A DNA stretch of 64,000 nt from an uncultured Clostridia bacterium (GTDB lineage Bacteria > Bacillota > Clostridia > Christensenellales > UBA1242), in the NCBI GenBank assembly GCA_944372445.1, contig CALVZE010000003.1, positions 1,816 through 65,815 of the forward strand, given 5' to 3'. The position numbers and the translations under genes are program-made. This document shows, one piece after another, positions 30,063 to 41,827 of the stretch. How positions within the stretch are numbered: the first letter of the stretch is position 1; each line of letters opens with the position of its first letter. The notes under the pieces were generated by a model. The model was not told the origin of the DNA. It was given only the letters and a program-made list of their open reading frames with translations, and did no database searches.

Positions 30063-30413
30063 TTGACAGTAGATACCAATAATTATTATGGTAAAATTTC
30101 AATTAGCGACAAGGCGATACGCACTGTCGCTGGTTTTGTTGCCATGGATTGCTATGGTGTTGTCGACCTCGTTTCTAAAAGCATTAAAGACAGTGCTCGT
30201 GAGTTTTTTAAAAAGGAATCCTATTCTCGTGGGGTTTCAGTAAATCATATCGACAACCGTATATATATTGACATACACTGCATTTTAAAGTATGGTGTTT
30301 CTATTTCTGCGGTTGCTGAGTCGCTTAAAAAATCAGTTAAATACACAATTGAAAATTTCACAGGCATGATTGTTGACACTGTGAATGTTCATGTTGTGGG
30401 TGTTAGAGTGTAG
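30063..30413 (+). CDS. Asp23/YloU family protein
   Basis: TTG start follows GGAGGA. GKISISDKAIRTVAGFVAMDCYGVV is Asp23-like. Shows the canonical rpmB / yloU-yloV arrangement. Confidence 0.85.
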   Translation: MTVDTNNYYGKISISDKAIRTVAGFVAMDCYGVVDLVSKSIKDSAREFFKKESYSRGVSVNHIDNRIYIDIHCILKYGVSISAVAESLKKSVKYTIENFTGMIVDTVNVHVVGVRV

Positions 30414-30425
30414 GAGTTAATTATT

Positions 30426-32060
30426 ATGCAGAAAACGATTAATGGTGTGTCCTTTCGTAAGATGGTTCTTGCGGGGGTTAGCCTTTTAGAGCAAAATAAA
30501 GAATATATTGATTCGCTTAATGTCTTTCCTGTTCCAGATGGAGACACAGGAACAAATATGTTTCTAACGATGAAGTCCGCTATGACAGAGATAAATAAGT
30601 GCATGAATAACGATATTTCTTCTCTTTCAGAAGCTTTCAGTAAGGGCGCTCTTCGTGGTGCGAGAGGAAATAGCGGTGTTATTACTTCTCAGATTTTCAA
30701 AGGTTTTTGTTCTGTAACAAGCGGATGTAAAGAGATTACAACAAAAGATTTTGCAAAGGCTATGCAGGAAGGAGCAACCATTGCATACAAAGCTGTCACA
30801 AAGCCAAAAGAGGGAACTATCTTAACTGTCATTCGCGTTATGGCTGAAAACGCCGTTTCTCTTGCGAAGAAGCATGAAGATTTTGAAGTGTTCTTGAAGA
30901 AAGTGATAGACACAGGTGAAGAAATTTTAAAGCAGACGCCAGAAATGCTTCCTGTGCTTAAAAAGGCGGGAGTTGTGGACTCTGGCGGTAGAGGTATTCT
31001 TGTTATCTTCACAGGTTTTTATCGCTACATCATGGGCGATGAAGATTTAGAAATAACATTTGAAGATGACAAACAACCTCAAAGCCTTGACGATGTGATT
31101 GCTGACATAAATAATCTTGGCGATATTGAATTCGGTTACTGCACTGAGTATATGATTATCCATATGCACAAAAAGACGACAGAAGCAGATATTGATAAGC
31201 TAAGAGAAAAACTTATGGAAATCGGCGACTCTGTCATCTGCATCGGTGACCTATCGCTTGTCAAAGTGCATGTGCATACAAACGAACCTAACAAAGCTCT
31301 CGGCTATGCGCTTGAACTTGGTGAACTTTTCAACTTGAAAATCGAAAACATGCGCGAGCAAAATAGAGAACTTAAAAAGAAAGCACAAGTTGTTGAAGAA
31401 AGCAAAGAAATGGGTATGATTTCTGTTGCTCCTGGTGATGGTCTTGCATCAATATTTAAAGATTTAACAGTTGATGAAATTATTGTTGGTGGTCAAACTA
31501 TGAACCCAAGTGCTGAGGATATTGCTACCGCTGCCGACAAAGTGCCTGCAAGAACCGTTTTTGTTTTTCCTAATAATAAGAATATCGTTTTAGCAGCAGA
31601 ACAAGCAAACGATGTGACAAATAAAAATTTAGTCATCATTCCAACCAAAAGCGTTCCGGAAGGAATTTCCGCAGCTATCGCTTTCAATCCTGAGGCTAGT
31701 GTTGAAGAAAACAAGACGGCTATGCTTGACGCGATAAAGTCTGTCCGCTCTGGACAGGTGACTTATGCAGTTCGCGACACTCATGTCGATGGTTTTGACC
31801 TTCGAAAGGGAGAGATTATTGGACTTGACGACAAGGCAATCTTGGCGAAGGGTGACTTAGTGGGCGACACCACTGAAAAACTTATCGAAACGATGTTTAA
31901 TGACAGCGTTATCAACATTACTTTATTCTTTGGCGAGGATATTAGAGAAGATGAAGCGAATAAATTACAAGAGAAGCTTGCTGAAAAATATCCAGAATGC
32001 GAAGTGACTGTGGCTTATGGCGGTCAGCCGGTGTATTATTACATCATCTCACTTGAATAA
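30426..32060 (+). CDS. DAK2 domain-containing protein YloV-like
   Basis: N-terminal DAK2 motifs LNVFPVPDGDTGTNM and RGARGNSGVI. 544 aa. Confidence 0.9.
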   Translation: MQKTINGVSFRKMVLAGVSLLEQNKEYIDSLNVFPVPDGDTGTNMFLTMKSAMTEINKCMNNDISSLSEAFSKGALRGARGNSGVITSQIFKGFCSVTSGCKEITTKDFAKAMQEGATIAYKAVTKPKEGTILTVIRVMAENAVSLAKKHEDFEVFLKKVIDTGEEILKQTPEMLPVLKKAGVVDSGGRGILVIFTGFYRYIMGDEDLEITFEDDKQPQSLDDVIADINNLGDIEFGYCTEYMIIHMHKKTTEADIDKLREKLMEIGDSVICIGDLSLVKVHVHTNEPNKALGYALELGELFNLKIENMREQNRELKKKAQVVEESKEMGMISVAPGDGLASIFKDLTVDEIIVGGQTMNPSAEDIATAADKVPARTVFVFPNNKNIVLAAEQANDVTNKNLVIIPTKSVPEGISAAIAFNPEASVEENKTAMLDAIKSVRSGQVTYAVRDTHVDGFDLRKGEIIGLDDKAILAKGDLVGDTTEKLIETMFNDSVINITLFFGEDIREDEANKLQEKLAEKYPECEVTVAYGGQPVYYYIISLE

Positions 32061-32216: not shown

Positions 32217-34115
32217 GTGAATATGAATAACTTAACCTGCACAAGCGAAATCGTGCGCATGGCTAAAACATACTTTGCAATGAGCGAGGATGAAATAGAA
32301 AGCGCACTTATGAAGGCTAAGAAGAAAAAAGATTTCAGTGAAAGTTATTTATATTCTATTTTAATTTCGGCTGAACCTTATTTTTCTAGATACCTTGAAG
32401 ATACGCCTGTTGATTTACAAAGAAAGATAGGCAGGGTGGCGTTTGATGGTTTAAATTATTCTACATTTCGCCTTTATGAAACTCCGCAAGATACGAGGTA
32501 TAGGCTTACCGAATTCTTTGCCATGACAAGCAGTTATGGTATTAATCCATACAAGATTTTTTATTCCACCGTCATTTCAAAAGCTCATCTATTCTATAAT
32601 AGAGAAGGAAAATATAGCATTTACAAGCATGAAACTAGCAATTTTGAAGTGGTTTCAAACGCAATTGAGGAGCAATTAGGCATAGATAAAGCCAAAGTTG
32701 CTAAAATGTATGAGCGCTGTTCTTCTCTTTATTACAAAGTTGATATAGAGAAGATTGAAAAAAACTACCGTGCGATTAGGCGATTAAGCTATAATTCAGC
32801 AAGCATATTTAATAATATAGAAGTAAAGGAGATTTTGAGAAACAATCCTACTTTATATTCTTGTTCACAAATTGAAAGTGCTTTTAATTATCTAAAAAAG
32901 AAAGCTGAAATTTATAAAGCTAAAAACAACGACAAAAGATGTGTAGAAGATATTTTAAACAGCTGGATTAAGAATAATTCCTCTTCTCTTGCTATCAATG
33001 TGGAGGGTATGAAAAGTAAGGAGAGGGCATTATATAACTTTTTAACCACCATTGCAAGCAATGACAAGGTGGCAAGTGTTATTTATTCTATATTTGATAA
33101 CCCTACAAGTATCTCTACCATAAACAAAATTTCCAGCGATACATTTTTTAAACATGAGAATTATATGAAAGTGATAAAGACGCTTATTTATTTTCTGGAT
33201 GCTCCTAGCAAGGAGAAATACCCTTTGAATACTTTTAACTATCTAAAAAATTCAAAATTGGTATATTCAATTGATTATAAAAGGCTTAAAGGTTTTTTAG
33301 ATAAAGTCAAAAATTGTGATATTCAAGATAAAACTAATTTAATGCAAAGATTTGTCGAAAAGGGTGATGCTATCTATTCTTATTTCGATAAATATACCGA
33401 TGATGAAATATTAGAAAAACTTAGAACAGACAAGATTTTATTCCGTATAAAACTCTACAATATGACAAAATCTATGATTGCTCATAAGTTTTATGAGGTA
33501 TTTTCAAATAATCCTGACGAAAAATTCAACTATCTTAACGACCTTTTGTGCGAAAATTATAATTTGGAAATTATTTGTTCTCATATCAACAAGGCAACCT
33601 CATATATCGATATACTTAAAAAAGTTTTGAATAGAAATGGCAATGTTTTACCTTTTGCTAAGGAGATAGAGGAGAATGCTCTTAGTTTTCTTGGTGTCTA
33701 TTTTCAATATGAAGAAAAATATATAAAAGTTGACTTTGGCGAGGCTATGGAGATGTTTATGACAAAGGTCGATGATGCAAAAAAGGAAATAGACACTCTT
33801 TATGAAAATGGAGTGGATGATGCAAAAAAACGCTATGATAGTGTCGATGCTTTATATCGCACTTTTAAAGAAAACACTGAGAATAAGTTATCAAAAAATA
33901 ACAATCCTGTTTTAAGGCGCGAAGAGTTTAAAAAAGATTTACAAGAAGTGGTGAAAGCGCTTGAAAAAGAAGTCGAAACAAAGCAACTGTCTATATATGA
34001 TTACAAAGACGGAGTAAATGACAAATATCAAGCTTTGAGTATATTGAAAAAAGTTCAAGCTAGATTTAATACTTTTGATAGCTATATAGAGAAAGAAAAT
34101 AATAGGATGTTATGA
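32217..34115 (+). CDS. Hypothetical protein, 632 aa, predicted all-helical, no recognised catalytic motif
   Basis: Long uninterrupted ORF rich in K, N, Y, I and S, with its own promoter. The start could be GTG 32217 or ATG 32223. There is no Walker motif, signal peptide or TM segment. Confidence 0.7.
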   Translation: MNMNNLTCTSEIVRMAKTYFAMSEDEIESALMKAKKKKDFSESYLYSILISAEPYFSRYLEDTPVDLQRKIGRVAFDGLNYSTFRLYETPQDTRYRLTEFFAMTSSYGINPYKIFYSTVISKAHLFYNREGKYSIYKHETSNFEVVSNAIEEQLGIDKAKVAKMYERCSSLYYKVDIEKIEKNYRAIRRLSYNSASIFNNIEVKEILRNNPTLYSCSQIESAFNYLKKKAEIYKAKNNDKRCVEDILNSWIKNNSSSLAINVEGMKSKERALYNFLTTIASNDKVASVIYSIFDNPTSISTINKISSDTFFKHENYMKVIKTLIYFLDAPSKEKYPLNTFNYLKNSKLVYSIDYKRLKGFLDKVKNCDIQDKTNLMQRFVEKGDAIYSYFDKYTDDEILEKLRTDKILFRIKLYNMTKSMIAHKFYEVFSNNPDEKFNYLNDLLCENYNLEIICSHINKATSYIDILKKVLNRNGNVLPFAKEIEENALSFLGVYFQYEEKYIKVDFGEAMEMFMTKVDDAKKEIDTLYENGVDDAKKRYDSVDALYRTFKENTENKLSKNNNPVLRREEFKKDLQEVVKALEKEVETKQLSIYDYKDGVNDKYQALSILKKVQARFNTFDSYIEKENNRML

Positions 34116-36535: not shown

Positions 36536-37717
36536 ATGACGACATTTTTATATGTATTACTTGCGATTGTGGTTCTTCTATTCATGGTTATGGTTCATGA
36601 GCTTGGACACTACATCGCAGGAAAAATTTTGAAATTTAAGATAACTGAATTTTCAATCGGGTTTGGAAAGGCTATCTTTTCTCATACCTCAAAAAAAACA
36701 GGCGAAAAGTTTTCTCTTCGCATTTTTCCACTAGGAGGCTACTGCTCTTTTTATGGCGAGGAAGATGACGGCACGGCAGAAAAACTTGATGACAATAAAA
36801 ACATTGTGGATGTCAAGCAAAACGACGGCGTGCCTTTTAACAGTCAAAAGCCATGGAAACGAATAATCGTCTTTTTGGCTGGTGTTACCATGAATTTCAT
36901 AACTGCCATCCTCTTTTCTTGGATTCTTCTTTGTGCGGTCGGTTATGATGTTCCACAGATTATTGATTATAGCTCAACTATAAATGTTGATGAGAATGGG
37001 CAAAGCATTTTTCAAAAGGGCGATGTAATTACTCACATTAATGGAGAAAAAATTGATTTCGCCTTTGGTGTCAATTTTAACACAGCTATCTCCAACCAAA
37101 AGGAATCCGCAAAAGAATTTTATGAGAGTGAAAACTATGCGGGCGGAGATTATGTTTTTGATATGACCGTTCGCCGTGACGGAGAGAGTATTGTTTTAGA
37201 AAATGTTAAGATAATCCAAGAAGTTGTGACGGAAACTGACAGTGACACAGGCGAGGTTAAGACAAGTTATGTTTATCTTATGGGACTAGAAAGCACCGAG
37301 AACAAAGTTTGCACGAAGGCGTATAAGTATGGCTTCTTCGAGGGCTTAGGGCGTTCGTTTTCTATGGCTTTCGGCTTTGCATGGGTGGTGCTTAAAAGTT
37401 TATGGATGCTTATAACTTTCCAAATTCCTATCACTGAAATGGGCGGAACGATAACAACCATTGCCACAATGGCAGAATACACTGCAATAAACCCTGCAAA
37501 TCTTTTAATCTTTATACCACTAATATCTGCCAATCTTGCCATATTTAACCTGTTGCCGTTTCCAGCGCTTGACGGGGCGCATGTTCTTTTCACAGTCATT
37601 GAATGGATACGAGGAAAGCCAATCAATCGAAAAGTGGAAAATACCATTCACTTTGTCGGCATTTGCATTCTCTTTGCCTTTGTCGTCATTGTAGATATAC
37701 TGCATTTTTTGCTTTAA
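36536..37717 (+). CDS. rseP: RIP metalloprotease RseP/RasP (M50 site-2 protease)
   Basis: HELGHY zinc motif, a PDZ-like middle region, and C-terminal NLLPFPALDG. Confidence 0.9.
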   Translation: MTTFLYVLLAIVVLLFMVMVHELGHYIAGKILKFKITEFSIGFGKAIFSHTSKKTGEKFSLRIFPLGGYCSFYGEEDDGTAEKLDDNKNIVDVKQNDGVPFNSQKPWKRIIVFLAGVTMNFITAILFSWILLCAVGYDVPQIIDYSSTINVDENGQSIFQKGDVITHINGEKIDFAFGVNFNTAISNQKESAKEFYESENYAGGDYVFDMTVRRDGESIVLENVKIIQEVVTETDSDTGEVKTSYVYLMGLESTENKVCTKAYKYGFFEGLGRSFSMAFGFAWVVLKSLWMLITFQIPITEMGGTITTIATMAEYTAINPANLLIFIPLISANLAIFNLLPFPALDGAHVLFTVIEWIRGKPINRKVENTIHFVGICILFAFVVIVDILHFLL

Positions 37718-37737
37718 AGGTAGATAAAAATATTTAG

Positions 37738-37772
37738 AAAAACTCTATGTCGAAAAACATTAGAGTTTTTTA
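37738..37772 (+). terminator. Rho-independent terminator after rseP
   Basis: AAAAACTCTA-13 nt-TAGAGTTTTT plus T. Confidence 0.65.
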
Positions 37773-37774
37773 TA

Positions 37775-37803
37775 TTGACAAAATAGATATTTTTGTTTAT
37801 AAT
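37775..37803 (+). promoter_or_regulatory. Consensus sigma-A promoter
   Basis: TTGACA, 17-nt spacer, TATAAT (both hexamers perfect). Confidence 0.7.
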
Positions 37804-37820
37804 TTGCGAAAAAGGACGAA

Positions 37821-38387
37821 ATGGAAAGAAAAACGATTTTAAAGCTTAAAGAAGTGTTTTCGCACGGCTACGCGTGGACAAGAGGCTGTGAGCATTATAG
37901 TTATGTTTTAAATAATGGTTATAATGTGGCTTATATAATAAATTGCTTTGGGCATGCATGCTTTAATTTAACCAACAAACAACTTGACAATCTGAATTTC
38001 AACATGACAGACTATTATGCACTAAGAAATTTTTATAAATATAAAAACGAAACGAAAAGAGAGGTTTCAGAAGAGTTATTTTCTTTTGTCGAACAGGCGG
38101 GTATCAAGGTGAGTAGTTTAAGTCGAGGAATACTTAAACGCAACCAAACGGTGGTGGCGCTTTATATTGACGAAAAATATAAAGATATCCACTTTATCAA
38201 GCTGGACGAATATGGCTGGTCGAGTAAATTAGGTATTACTCCGGGAATTAAGCTATATGAAAATGTTCCGGAAAAAATTTCGCCTTTTTATGAGTTTTAT
38301 GATAGCTATATTTTAACCAACAAAAAAGCCGACGGAGACGGAGTGACAAAGAATATTGTTGACAACAATCCCGTTCTCATTCTATAA
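37821..38387 (+). CDS. Hypothetical protein, 188 aa (possible Cys/His hydrolase)
   Basis: Its own perfect promoter. Candidate nucleophile context INCFGHACFN and a later DIHFIKLD...GWSSKLG. No confident family call. Confidence 0.6.
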   Translation: MERKTILKLKEVFSHGYAWTRGCEHYSYVLNNGYNVAYIINCFGHACFNLTNKQLDNLNFNMTDYYALRNFYKYKNETKREVSEELFSFVEQAGIKVSSLSRGILKRNQTVVALYIDEKYKDIHFIKLDEYGWSSKLGITPGIKLYENVPEKISPFYEFYDSYILTNKKADGDGVTKNIVDNNPVLIL

Positions 38388-38394
38388 AAACAAC

Positions 38395-38423
38395 TTGACA
38401 AATTATGTCATATTTTATAAAAT
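38395..38423 (+). promoter_or_regulatory. Sigma-A promoter positioned for a leaderless transcript
   Basis: TTGACA, 17-nt spacer, TAAAAT, then 6 nt (GATAAC), then the ATG at 38430. No SD. Confidence 0.55.
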
Positions 38424-38429
38424 GATAAC

Positions 38430-39959
38430 ATGAATTTTGAACAAGAATTTAATAAAAAGTTTGGAGAAAGATTTTCTAACTTATATCTAAAAAATGTTGT
38501 TGTAGATAAGGACACTTGCACAGTGACTTTCCTTTATCCATCCACTGATGAAACACTTACCGATGTTGAAAAAGAGGAAATAATAAAATTTGCAGAAGAG
38601 AAGCTTTCTTTGTCTTACTTACATCTTAAAGTTAAATTCCTTAAAGTATATGTTGAAGAAAAACTCATAATAAAGGCGCTTTTTAATATTCTTGAAGATA
38701 AATTCAAATTGTTAAAAACATACATTCATGATGAAGATATCAAGGTGGAGATAACAAACATTGACGCAACAATCACCTTTGATGTCAGTCCGCGTCTAGC
38801 TCAATTTTTTGCCGACAACAAGGCTTCGGTGTATATTGCAAAGGCACTAAAAGAAAGTTTTTTGATTAACTTCAACATAAATTTGAACTTGCTTGATGAT
38901 AAGGTTGACGAAGTCGATATTGATAATATTGAAGTTAAAACAACCACGCATAGAACTCAGAGATATGATGTTTTAGTCGTTAAAGAAGTGATTGGAAAAG
39001 ATATACCGCCGAAACCTGAGTTTATTTCAAACATACAATATCCTAAATCTTCGGTGATACTTGCTGGTTATATTGAAAACTTTGAGCGTAAAGACTTTGT
39101 TATAAAAAAAGGCGCGCGTGCAGGTCAGCAAAAGGCGTATTTTAAATTTAACTTGTTTGACGGCAAAGGGAAAATTGATTGTATATATTTTTGTCCGAAG
39201 AAAAATGAAGCGATTATGGATGCCTTAGAGGAGCATATGTTTTTGCTACTACATGGCGATGTGAAGCTTGGGCTAAACGGCAAGTTGACGCTATATATTG
39301 ATAAACTCGCTCTTGCAAGCGAAACTGAACAGAAGGAGGTCGAAAAACCTCATGGACAAATTAAAGAAGTGGAGATAGAGAGGCTTGGAGCGCTTGAACA
39401 AGATAATATGTTTGGAGAGGTGGAGAAATACAACCATAAGGTTATGGACAATAATATTGTGGTGTTTGATATTGAAACAACAGGACTAAATCCTGAAATC
39501 GACCAAATTATCGAACTTGGCGCAGTAAAGATTGAAAAAGGGAATATTATCGAAAAATTTTCAACTTTTGTTAAGCCTACTATTGAAATTCCGTTTGAGG
39601 TTATGGAACTTACGCATATAACCAACGAAATGGTGGAAGATGCACCAGAGATTGAGGACGTTATTAGGCAATTTTTCGAATTTTCTAAGGGCTGTGTGCT
39701 TTGTGGGCATAATATAATCAACTTCGACATTAAGTTTATTAGGCGTTTTGGCGGTTATCAAAATTTAGAATTTAATAACGACATTATAGACACCTTGAAC
39801 GAGGCAAGAGTGTCGCGTTTGAAAATTTCAAGGTTTAATTTAGGAACGGTGACAAAAGCATTAGGTATTGAGCTTAAAGGAGCGCACAGGGCGTGGAATG
39901 ACGCTTTTGCAACCGCCCAGGTGCTTTTAAAGCTGAACGAAGCAGGCAGAAAGATGTAA
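38430..39959 (+). CDS. PolC-like N-terminal + OB-fold + DEDDh 3'-5' exonuclease protein lacking PHP and polymerase domains
   Basis: The exonuclease motifs VVFDIETTGL, GHNIINFD and HRAWNDAFATAQVL are close to the B. subtilis PolC exonuclease (VVFDVETTGL / AHNASFD / HRAIYDAEATAYLL). An OB-like segment VILAGYIENFERKDF...KFNLFDGKGKIDCIYF precedes them. The protein is only 509 aa. Confidence 0.75.
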   Translation: MNFEQEFNKKFGERFSNLYLKNVVVDKDTCTVTFLYPSTDETLTDVEKEEIIKFAEEKLSLSYLHLKVKFLKVYVEEKLIIKALFNILEDKFKLLKTYIHDEDIKVEITNIDATITFDVSPRLAQFFADNKASVYIAKALKESFLINFNINLNLLDDKVDEVDIDNIEVKTTTHRTQRYDVLVVKEVIGKDIPPKPEFISNIQYPKSSVILAGYIENFERKDFVIKKGARAGQQKAYFKFNLFDGKGKIDCIYFCPKKNEAIMDALEEHMFLLLHGDVKLGLNGKLTLYIDKLALASETEQKEVEKPHGQIKEVEIERLGALEQDNMFGEVEKYNHKVMDNNIVVFDIETTGLNPEIDQIIELGAVKIEKGNIIEKFSTFVKPTIEIPFEVMELTHITNEMVEDAPEIEDVIRQFFEFSKGCVLCGHNIINFDIKFIRRFGGYQNLEFNNDIIDTLNEARVSRLKISRFNLGTVTKALGIELKGAHRAWNDAFATAQVLLKLNEAGRKM

Positions 39960-40094
39960 AGTCACATTTACTTGTGGCAGTGTTAAAACTAGAAAATAAT
40001 TGCAGTAAACATATTTAAATTTAGCTAAATTGGCTTAATATGTTATTCATTTTAAAATAATTTATAGATTTTTTGAAAATATGTTAAAAAAATC

Positions 40095-40123
40095 TTGCTT
40101 TTTTTAAATTTATCGGTTATAAT
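40095..40123 (+). promoter_or_regulatory. Sigma-A promoter of the rimP-nusA-infB operon
   Basis: TTGCTT, 17-nt spacer, TATAAT. The leader contains hairpin GAGTGGGCA-atgt-TTGCTCACTC. Confidence 0.6.
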
Positions 40124-40187
40124 AATCTTATCTTGTGGCAGGGAGTGGGCAATGTTTGCTCACTCTTTGTGTTAATAGGAGGAAAAT

Positions 40188-40646
40188 ATGGCAAAAGTCA
40201 AAGAAATAAGCGAGGCGAAGCTTAGACCTGTAATCGAAGAAATGGGCTATGAACTCGTGGATGTAGAATACAAAAAAGAGTTTGACGGTATGAGTTTAAT
40301 TTTCACAATTGATAAAGAAGAAGGTGTGACTATTGACGATTGTGAAAAGGTGAACAAGGCGATTGACCCGATAATTGACGAGCTCAATCCAACGGGTGAC
40401 GAACCTTACACTTTGGTTGTTTCAAGCCCAGGGCTTGATAGACAACTTAAAACAGACAGAGATTTAAGACGAACTCTTGATAAAGATGTTTCGTTAACGC
40501 TCTTTTCGAAGCTTGACGGAAAAAAGAATTTCGAAGGCACGCTTGTGAATTTTGATGAAAAAACGGTCACGATAAAGATTGGTGACGAGGAAAAGGTGTT
40601 CGATAGAGATAAGATTGCTGGCTTGAAACTCGTCATTAAATTTTAA
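40188..40646 (+). CDS. rimP: Ribosome maturation factor RimP
   Basis: LEVSSPGLDRPL-like sequence (LVVSSPGLDRQL). Position upstream of nusA. Confidence 0.9.
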   Translation: MAKVKEISEAKLRPVIEEMGYELVDVEYKKEFDGMSLIFTIDKEEGVTIDDCEKVNKAIDPIIDELNPTGDEPYTLVVSSPGLDRQLKTDRDLRRTLDKDVSLTLFSKLDGKKNFEGTLVNFDEKTVTIKIGDEEKVFDRDKIAGLKLVIKF

Positions 40647-40666
40647 GGAAAAATAAGGAGAAAATA

Positions 40667-41827
40667 ATGGTAAATAAAGATTTTTTTAAGGCATTAGAGG
40701 AATTAGAACAGGAGAGAAATATAGATAAAGACACTTTTATTCAAACGCTTGAAACAGCTCTCACATCTGCTTACAAAAAGATGTATGGCGAAGCTAAAAG
40801 TGCTATGGTTAAATTATATCCAGAACGCAACACTATTAGGATTTATTCCTATAAGACTGTTGTAGATAATGTTGAAGATGAGGACAAAGAAATCTCTCTT
40901 GAAGAAGCAAGACTCTCAAAAAAGTCATATAAAGTTGGCGACATCGTTGCAGTTGAAGAAACCACTAAGGATTTTGGAAGAATTGCAGCTCAAACGGCGA
41001 AGCAAGTTGTTATGCAAAAACTTAAAGAACTTGAAAAACAACAGGCCGTAAGCGAACTATCTGAAAAAGAGGATGAACTTTTAACGACTATTGTTAAGCG
41101 TATAGATGGTGATAATGTTTTTGTAAGCATTCCAGGCACGAACACAGAAGGCGCCCTCATGAAACAGGACCAAATTCCTGGCGACAAATTTCAGGTTGGC
41201 GACAGAGTGAAAGTTTATGTTAAAAAGATTAAAGAATCTTTTCATGGTCCTCAAATTCAAGTTTCAAGAAGCAATATAGGCTTTGTCAGAAAGTTGTTTG
41301 AACTTGAAATTCCAGAGATTGCCAGCGGTGAGGTAGTTATAAAAAACATCGCACGCGATGCAGGCAATAGAACTAAGGTGGCAGTTTTTTGCGATAAGCC
41401 AAATGTGGACGCTGTTGGTGCTTGTGTTGGAAATAGGGGTTCAAGAATTAACACTATCGTTAACGAACTAAACGGCGAAAAGATTGATTTAGTCGAATAT
41501 TCTAATGACCCTCTTGAATATATCGCAAGAGCATTAAGTCCTGCAAAAGTGCTTTCAGTTGAAACAAATGACAGCCTTAACATGAGTCAGGTCATAGTTC
41601 CTGATGACAAGCTTTCCTTAGCAATCGGCAAGGGCGGGCAAAATGTTAGACTTGCTGCGAAACTCACTGGTTGGAAGATAGATGTTAAACCTGAAAGCTA
41701 TGTTAAACCTGTTAAGGATGAAAAAGAGCCTGAATACGAACTTACCGAGCTTTCTGACGAGGATTCTTTCAATACTATGAGTGACCTTGATGACCTTGAA
41801 GAAATCAATGGAGATGAGGAAAACTGA
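40667..41827 (+). CDS. nusA: Transcription termination/antitermination factor NusA
   Basis: N-terminal domain, S1 and KH domains (IGACVGNRGSRI, AIGKGGQNVRLAAKLTGWKIDV), and an acidic C-terminal tail. Confidence 0.95.
   Translation: MVNKDFFKALEELEQERNIDKDTFIQTLETALTSAYKKMYGEAKSAMVKLYPERNTIRIYSYKTVVDNVEDEDKEISLEEARLSKKSYKVGDIVAVEETTKDFGRIAAQTAKQVVMQKLKELEKQQAVSELSEKEDELLTTIVKRIDGDNVFVSIPGTNTEGALMKQDQIPGDKFQVGDRVKVYVKKIKESFHGPQIQVSRSNIGFVRKLFELEIPEIASGEVVIKNIARDAGNRTKVAVFCDKPNVDAVGACVGNRGSRINTIVNELNGEKIDLVEYSNDPLEYIARALSPAKVLSVETNDSLNMSQVIVPDDKLSLAIGKGGQNVRLAAKLTGWKIDVKPESYVKPVKDEKEPEYELTELSDEDSFNTMSDLDDLEEINGDEEN

Follow-up and report, generated by a model that had tools for sequence, protein, structure and literature searches.

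The stretch of DNA analysed here (the window: 64,000 nucleotides of contig CALVZE010000003.1, from an uncultured chicken-gut member of the Clostridia) carries the gene order frr, uppS, cdsA, rseP, a 188-amino acid (aa) orphan open reading frame (ORF), a 509-aa ORF, rimP, nusA, ylxR, an L7Ae-type gene, infB, rbfA, nrnA, and truB. The 509-aa ORF, here called mini-PolC, occupies the position that in other Clostridia belongs to polC. PolC is regarded as the essential, defining replicase of the Firmicutes, and a new class of antibiotics, represented by ibezapolstat, is directed against it. An earlier note on this DNA had proposed that polC typically lies between rseP and rimP-nusA, and that this slot is filled in the window by a PolC-derived protein that has kept the N-terminal domain (NTD), the OB fold, and the proofreading exonuclease of PolC and has no polymerase. 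The ORF itself, profile comparisons, and tblastn searches bear this out. The order cdsA-rseP-polC-rimP-nusA-infB, with a full-length polC of 1,350-1,550 aa, was checked and found in several groups of Clostridia (Halanaerobiales, Thermoanaerobacterales, Clostridium, Peptoniphilus, and others), and the same order with the short gene in place of polC is seen in ~30 mini-PolC loci. The mini-PolC slot is thus the positional equivalent of polC. The stop codon of mini-PolC (39957-39959) is followed by 228 nucleotides (nt) of intergenic DNA and then by rimP, which has its own Shine-Dalgarno sequence (AGGAGG). The features of the locus are collected in Table 1.

Table 1. Features of the mini-PolC locus, in coordinates of the window.
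Feature	Position	Strand	Remarks
rseP (Peptidase_M50)	36536..37717	+	Upstream synteny anchor of the polC slot
Promoter-like site, TTGACA-17-TAAAAT	38395..38423	+	Consensus match only
mini-PolC gene (polymerase-less PolC derivative)	38430..39959	+	ATG start, 509 aa, stop codon included
N-terminal domain, residues 1-160, two small alpha/beta subdomains	38430..38909	+	Colinear with the PolC N-terminal domain
OB fold, ~residues 200-300	39027..39329	+	Colinear with the PolC OB domain preceding PHP
Q324-D-N-M-F328, beta-clamp-binding-type pentapeptide	39399..39413	+	Disordered linker, 23 residues before ExoI
DEDDh 3'-5' exonuclease, PolC type	39444..39941	+	Residues 339-504
Intergenic spacer before rimP	39960..40187	.	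No PolC coding remnant
rimP and nusA	40188..41827	+	Downstream synteny anchors of the polC slot

The C-terminal module of mini-PolC has the motifs and the domain score of a DnaQ-like DEDDh exonuclease. Its catalytic residues, D347 and E349 (ExoI), D433 (ExoII), and H486 and D491 (ExoIII), are invariant in an alignment of 37 sequences, and both ExoI and ExoIII are present in 36/36 diverse members of the family. The peptides quoted in the earlier note are all found: VVFDIETTGL (residues 344-353), IIELGAVKIEKGNIIEKFSTF (359-379), GHNIINFD (426-433), HRAWNDAFATAQVL (486-499), and, within the OB-fold segment, VILAGYIENFERKDF (209-223). Pfam RNase_T (PF00929) matches residues 344-499 with an expectation value (E) of 6.9e-34 and 118.2 bits (cut-off 24), and the domain model TIGR00573 scores above its cut-off (112.4 bits vs 71.5). 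That the nuclease is of the PolC type, as had been proposed, is indicated by its best NCBIfam model, the PolC model NF001688, which is matched at profile positions 414-586 only (E 9.7e-50), and by its best solved structures, the T. maritima PolC exonuclease 2p1j and E. faecium PolC 9qpc. Identity to the exonuclease domains of PolC is 42-56%. (Generic 3'-5' exonuclease models of NCBIfam also match strongly, for example PRK06807 at E 4e-43; in Foldseek, PolC 9qrn_A matches with a root-mean-square deviation (rmsd) of 3.6 over 174 columns and E. coli epsilon with an rmsd of ~2.0 over ~173 columns.) The protein ends 18 residues past ExoIII, and all 36 members end 12-25 residues past this motif. With its catalytic residues intact, mini-PolC is predicted to be a catalytically competent 3'-5' exonuclease.

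Upstream of the nuclease, the similarity to PolC is carried by profiles. When a profile of the NTD and OB fold of the family (31 sequences) was compared by hhalign with a profile of the PolC N-terminus (50 sequences), the two aligned colinearly over 275 columns (family 16-307, PolC 28-332) with a probability of 98.8% and an E of 5.5e-17. The NTD alone matched the same PolC profile over 133 columns (family 16-155, PolC 28-167; 89%, E 2e-6), and the OB part matched PolC 236-351 at E 4e-5; controls with a reversed template and with 20 column shuffles gave probabilities of at most 0.3% and E of at least 0.22. Against an alignment of whole PolC, the match of the NTD and OB fold falls at the N-terminus, in columns 45-335 (NTD: 45-182). 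The PolC-like character that the earlier note had seen in the N-terminal region is therefore recovered by profile comparison, and so is its OB-fold-like segment: the Pfam OB model PF01336 matches residues 212-293 weakly (E 1.2e-5; 25.5 bits, below the cut-off of 27) and has matches in 34 of 37 members of the family. The Pfam models for the PolC N-terminus, PF14480 and PF11490, match none of the 37. The full-length AlphaFold2 model, with a mean predicted local distance difference test (pLDDT) of 82.6 and a predicted TM-score (pTM) of 0.43, consists of confident domains joined by disordered linkers (pLDDT <50 at residues 162-174, 303-309, and 321-329), and its top match in the PDB by Foldseek is PolC 9qpc_A (393 columns, E 2.4e-20), with the OB fold included. 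Judged by profiles and predicted structure, all three modules (NTD, OB fold, and DEDDh exonuclease) are derived from PolC and have kept their original order.

What separates mini-PolC from PolC is what is missing. Both share the chromosomal slot and the order NTD, OB fold, DEDDh exonuclease, but PolC also has a PHP domain, a polymerase core, an HhH module, and a clamp motif in its polymerase part, all four of which are absent from mini-PolC. In PolC the exonuclease is inserted in the PHP domain; in mini-PolC it is not, and only ~45 residues separate it from the OB fold. There is no match in mini-PolC to the Pol III alpha core (PF07733, PF17657) or to PHP (PF02811) in Pfam, and its whole-protein scores lie far below the cut-offs for PolC (NF001688, 169.2 bits vs 873; TIGR01405, 161.1 vs 1043). 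A tblastn search with 15 full-length PolCs detected no PHP or polymerase similarity in any of the six frames of the window; the exonuclease segment alone was matched, and the best match outside it had an E of 0.47. Nor was PHP or polymerase sequence seen, whatever the frame, at ~36 related loci. As the earlier note had stated, then, the PHP and polymerase regions are gone and rimP follows directly downstream. Mini-PolC is a positional descendant of polC that has lost the PHP domain and the polymerase (palm, fingers, thumb, and HhH).

It might be asked whether an assembly error, a frameshift, or a recent deletion has simply shortened a normal polC, leaving an artefact or a dying pseudogene. Nothing speaks for this, though the NCBI name of one family member, given below, could mislead. 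A protein identical to mini-PolC is encoded on 7 independently assembled contigs with the same neighbours, and at least 20 chicken-gut sequencing runs, drawn from about ten studies, contain the stretch. In four of these runs, which belong to four different studies, contigs cover 37700-40700 colinearly and differ from the window by single bases and by one 9-nt intergenic insertion (at 39969, in one run); one rearranged 151-nt contig of low depth lies in the rimP leader (40170-40227), outside the mini-PolC ORF. The locus is thus reproduced in independent samples, which rejects an assembly error, and no polymerase-coding sequence lies past the stop codon into which a frameshift or read-through could lead; here the earlier note, which had seen no hidden polC, is borne out. 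Hundreds of species encode the same ~510-aa product, and the ratio of nonsynonymous to synonymous substitution rates (dN/dS) of ~0.05 is not that of a decaying pseudogene. We regard the chance of an artefact or pseudogene as negligible.

Relatives of mini-PolC form a clade-wide family, so that the architecture is not a peculiarity of one genome. A word-indexed search returned more than 120 clusters of proteins of ~510 aa at 43-99% identity, and a scan of one genome per species gave, among its best 80 matches, ~36 loci with proteins of 505-530 aa (counted from the first start codon, with one start left open) and identities down to 26%; the closest relative among these matches is that of Candidatus Caccovivens faecavium, at 91%. 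In a search of 1.84 billion representative proteins, a profile built from the non-nuclease part (NTD, OB fold, and linker) matched 714 clusters (at 50% identity) at E <=1e-3 and 312 at E <=1e-30. The best 150 of these matches are all 505-577 aa or shorter fragments; no long protein is among them, which argues that neither a close paralogue nor an unsplit intermediate exists. In a tree of NusA and IF2 from 45 loci, the 30 mini-PolC genomes make up one side of a branch with a support of 100 in the Shimodaira-Hasegawa-like approximate likelihood ratio test (SH-aLRT), so one change of state suffices, and in a tree of 98 exonuclease domains the 36 from mini-PolC form one clade (SH-aLRT 99) apart from the 62 from PolC. 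On both of these trees, which are quick trees of a biased sample with no root inferred, mini-PolC has a single origin, and we propose that the loss event took place in the ancestor of a deep clade of uncultured gut Clostridia. A genome labelled 'Christensenella sp.' (locus L061, metagenome-assembled) encodes a full-length PolC. Compared with the orthologue of Ca. C. faecavium, dN/dS is 0.05 overall and 0.07, 0.04, 0.025, and 0.04 for the NTD, OB part, linker, and nuclease, respectively. As read from these sequences, the family is large, old, and under strong purifying selection. The earlier note had suggested either a remnant or a neo-functionalised stand-alone factor; given such a family, the neo-functionalised factor fits better and the decaying remnant falls away.

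The surroundings of the gene vary in a few members. In the metagenome-assembled genome (MAG) UMGS808 (locus L024, 3256-6292), the clearest out-of-slot case among the ~36 loci, mini-PolC lies directly 3' of tilS and outside the rseP-rimP slot; three other loci (L042, L064, and L085) likewise have no rseP upstream of it. In locus L035 (11467-15375), the otherwise fixed adjacency of mini-PolC and rimP is interrupted by two paralogous minus-strand genes, each of ~620 aa and rich in repeats in its C-terminal half; the sister locus L060 has no such insert, and rimP follows mini-PolC directly.

A second conserved feature lies in the linker between the OB fold and the nuclease. Of 36 members, 33 have the consensus Q-x-x-[LMIF]-[FL] 20 to 25 residues ahead of ExoI, and the remaining three, the most divergent of the set, show E-T-T-L-F there instead; Q324 and F328 are conserved at >=90% in an alignment with identities as low as 14%. 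In none of 60 full-length PolCs does this consensus occur within 45 residues before ExoI. The motif falls within residues 321-329, one of the segments of low pLDDT, so that in mini-PolC a conserved clamp-type sequence lies in what is predicted to be an exposed, flexible segment. This putative derived motif has the form of the bacterial beta-clamp-binding pentapeptide of the QL[SD]LF type, occupies a new position relative to the clamp motif of PolC, and appears to have been acquired by mini-PolC; through it, the protein may bind DnaN. Neither the motif nor the clade-wide occurrence of mini-PolC had figured in the earlier note.

Since mini-PolC retains the front end of PolC and its error-correcting nuclease and has no polymerase of its own, it probably serves as proofreader to a polymerase whose gene lies elsewhere. 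We favour, with a probability of about 0.58, the reading that mini-PolC is a clamp-tethered, stand-alone 3'-5' proofreader for a separately encoded replicase, probably DnaE1. As a separate proofreading subunit, mini-PolC would dock through its motif on a single protomer of the sliding clamp; single-stranded DNA or a partner in the replisome would be held by the OB fold, perhaps together with the NTD; and the nuclease would trim mispaired 3' ends left by the partner polymerase, which would most likely be DnaE1. To our knowledge, DnaE1 is present in all Clostridia. According to the survey by Timinskas et al. (PMC3919608), clostridial DnaE1 carries a clamp motif of the typical kind, its PHP site is intact, and its putative epsilon-binding surface is conserved; some Clostridia are listed with DnaE1 only.

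There is precedent for a proofreader that is separate from its polymerase in E. coli epsilon. Epsilon (DnaQ; 1J53, 5FKV) is, like mini-PolC, a free-standing DEDDh exonuclease; it proofreads in trans for a DnaE1-type polymerase and has a short clamp-binding motif in a flexible linker. Unlike mini-PolC, however, it has neither an NTD nor an OB fold. Its motif follows the nuclease and its C-terminal peptide binds the PHP domain of alpha, whereas the motif of mini-PolC precedes the nuclease and the protein ends right past ExoIII. Mini-PolC is not an epsilon proper: it scores 71 bits against TIGR01406 (vs 222.7) and 77.4 against PRK05711 (vs 196), and it has no C-terminal alpha-binding segment. The relationship of the two sequences is distant, and the origin of mini-PolC, from PolC, is independent. 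A second precedent is the non-canonical DnaQ of mycobacteria (PNAS 2024, PMC11348249), in which a DEDDh exonuclease is likewise joined to additional domains; it uses a Q[Y/L]ALF motif to bind the beta clamp, does not stably bind the polymerase, and proofreads beside a DnaE1 whose PHP domain is active. Its accessory domain is a BRCT domain rather than the PolC NTD and OB fold, its motif is C-terminal, unlike that of mini-PolC, and the two proteins share no origin beyond the DnaQ fold.

Uncoupling of polymerase and exonuclease has also been described for PolC itself. The exonuclease-less PolCs of Clostridia and Negativicutes (Timinskas et al. 2014, PMC3919608), anaerobic Firmicutes in which PolC is paired with DnaE1, represent the reciprocal reduction: there the polymerase is kept and the nuclease lost, whereas mini-PolC keeps the nuclease and has lost the polymerase. 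That survey and a survey of complete genomes from 2026 (PMC12926913), both systematic treatments of bacterial C-family polymerases, describe exonuclease-less PolCs, exonuclease-fused DnaE1, and stand-alone DnaQ; the mini-PolC architecture does not appear in the passages searched of either, and text searches of the literature returned no published description of the protein.

Several observations weigh against the proofreader reading. The presumed clamp motif is a five-residue pattern only, and in mycobacterial DnaQ the motif that is needed for clamp binding is dispensable for the antimutator function (PMC11348249). An exonuclease with an OB fold could equally serve repair or recombination. The NTD, when modelled alone (residues 1-160; pLDDT 91.8, pTM 0.74), has no significant fold match in the PDB (best E 1.2e-3), so that its PolC origin rests on the profile comparison; its nearest folds, none of them significant, are tandem BON domains, PrgH, and archaeal NusA KH domains, and since these are tandem small alpha/beta domains, they agree with the KH-like prediction for the PolC NTD that is cited by Timinskas et al. 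(PMC3919608). Finally, 50 of the 51 long ORFs of the window lie on the plus strand (ORFs wholly inside longer opposite-strand ORFs being excluded), the GC skew is positive in all bins, and the AT skew is positive in 28 of 32, which gives an excess of G and A on the coding strand; Saha et al. 2014 (PMC4070872) associated strand-biased genes together with purine excess with PolC.

This last point bears on a split replicase, in which the genome would encode, at another locus, a PolC-type polymerase (a PHP domain with the Pol3 core, or else a PolC that is complete or lacks only the exonuclease) and mini-PolC would be its detached half, re-associating with it non-covalently to restore a PolC-like holoenzyme. 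Besides the strand bias and purine asymmetry, such an arrangement is helped by the existence of exonuclease-less PolCs, mentioned above, and by G. kaustophilus PolC, which was crystallised without its NTD and exonuclease (3F2B, as described in PMC3919608), so the polymerase folds without those modules. A polymerase of this kind is not seen near the gene, however: there is no PolC polymerase within 10 kb of any of the ~36 loci, and no C-family polymerase in ~106 kb around the locus studied here (the window, ~36 kb downstream, and 6 kb upstream, walked by exact-protein look-ups along contigs), which is a small part of the genome. The 33 mini-PolC genomes gave no second, full-length PolC locus among the best 80 matches of the genome scan, which is weak evidence, and the absence of long proteins from the best N-terminal profile matches, noted above, points the same way. 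(Two further searches were made. A PolC-core profile search limited to shorter proteins was dominated by truncated PolC gene calls from Agathobacter and Roseburia and was uninformative on the mini-PolC clade; a mini-PolC query padded with X and aimed at full-length proteins matched only ordinary PolCs, through the exonuclease.) Mini-PolC has lost the PHP halves between which the exonuclease of PolC lies, and with them the original covalent docking site, while its clamp motif suggests that it is tethered independently. An intein-split polymerase of the cyanobacterial DnaE type was considered and rejected: no intein fragment is present, and because every member ends so soon after ExoIII, there is no C-terminal extension and no room for an N-intein fragment. 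We consider a split replicase improbable, yet keep it as a rival, given the strand bias and purine excess tied to PolC and the weakness of evidence drawn from the surroundings of the locus.

The nuclease could instead have left the replisome altogether. A PolC-derived exonuclease re-used in repair or recombination might act in end processing, gap repair, or degradation of single-stranded DNA, like ExoX, ExoI, or the DnaQ domain fused to DinG, with the OB fold as a substrate-binding module. The structural neighbours of mini-PolC do include ExoI, ExoX, and the S. aureus DinG exonuclease, generic exonuclease models match it strongly, an OB fold joined to a nuclease is a common repair architecture, and many clamp-binding proteins are repair factors. 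Its closest relatives by sequence and fold, however, are the exonuclease domains of PolC and not repair nucleases; the polC slot beside rimP-nusA-infB has been kept through the whole history of the deep clade; and the PolC-specific NTD has been kept under purifying selection, which is explained more easily by retained contacts with the replisome. A role in repair, and with it the particular activities just named, thus seems unlikely to us, though we keep it too as a rival.

If the proofreader reading is carried further, the whole clade would be without a PolC polymerase, DnaE1 would be its sole replicase, and polC would survive only as an epsilon-like, clamp-tethered proofreader; the clade, as deep as an order or more, takes in hundreds of uncultured species of Clostridia from gut and rumen. 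We advance this tentatively, at somewhat short of an even chance. Were it true, an arrangement of a polymerase with a separate DEDDh proofreader would have arisen within the Firmicutes independently and by a traceable route, and antibiotics directed at PolC would have no polymerase target in these gut bacteria. In any case, polC has become an exonuclease without a polymerase in a deep and abundant clade of gut bacteria, and the organisation of its replisome must differ from the B. subtilis and E. coli models. Mini-PolC would be a natural example of a built-in proofreader turned into a separate subunit, and it bears on the question, raised by Timinskas et al., of the respective roles of PolC and DnaE1 in Clostridia.

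Annotation of the family is uneven. The NCBI pipeline names one 509-aa member (P0045, MGN1201430.1) 'PolC-type DNA polymerase III' despite its having no polymerase, and other members 'ribonuclease H-like domain-containing protein'. The former label is misleading. Which gut bacteria PolC inhibitors can be predicted to affect turns on the same finding of a polymerase-less family.

The ATG of mini-PolC lies 6 nt past the -10 element of the promoter-like site and no Shine-Dalgarno sequence is present (38395-38432), which makes the mini-PolC mRNA a candidate leaderless transcript. Between rseP and mini-PolC lies the 188-aa orphan ORF (37821-38387), which has no Pfam or NCBIfam match and is preceded by a perfect consensus promoter-like site (37775-37803); among the ~36 related loci it is otherwise found only in Ca. 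C. faecavium. DNA identity to that species is 96-100% over 37400-38600 (background 80-90%), which suggests that this stretch is a small cassette exchanged recently. A patch in the fakA region (30073-31872) is likewise 96-99% identical to Ca. C. faecavium between flanks of ~80-85%, which points to recent recombination between the two species. Between fakA and frr lies a 632-aa ORF (32217-34115) that matches no family; locus L009 encodes a protein of equal size at the corresponding place. Gene orientation flips ~17 kb past the end of the window (L094/L095), probably at the replication terminus, and the opposite-strand genes beyond the flip include nifU-like and iscS-like genes, hslUV, trmFO, topA, and dprA.

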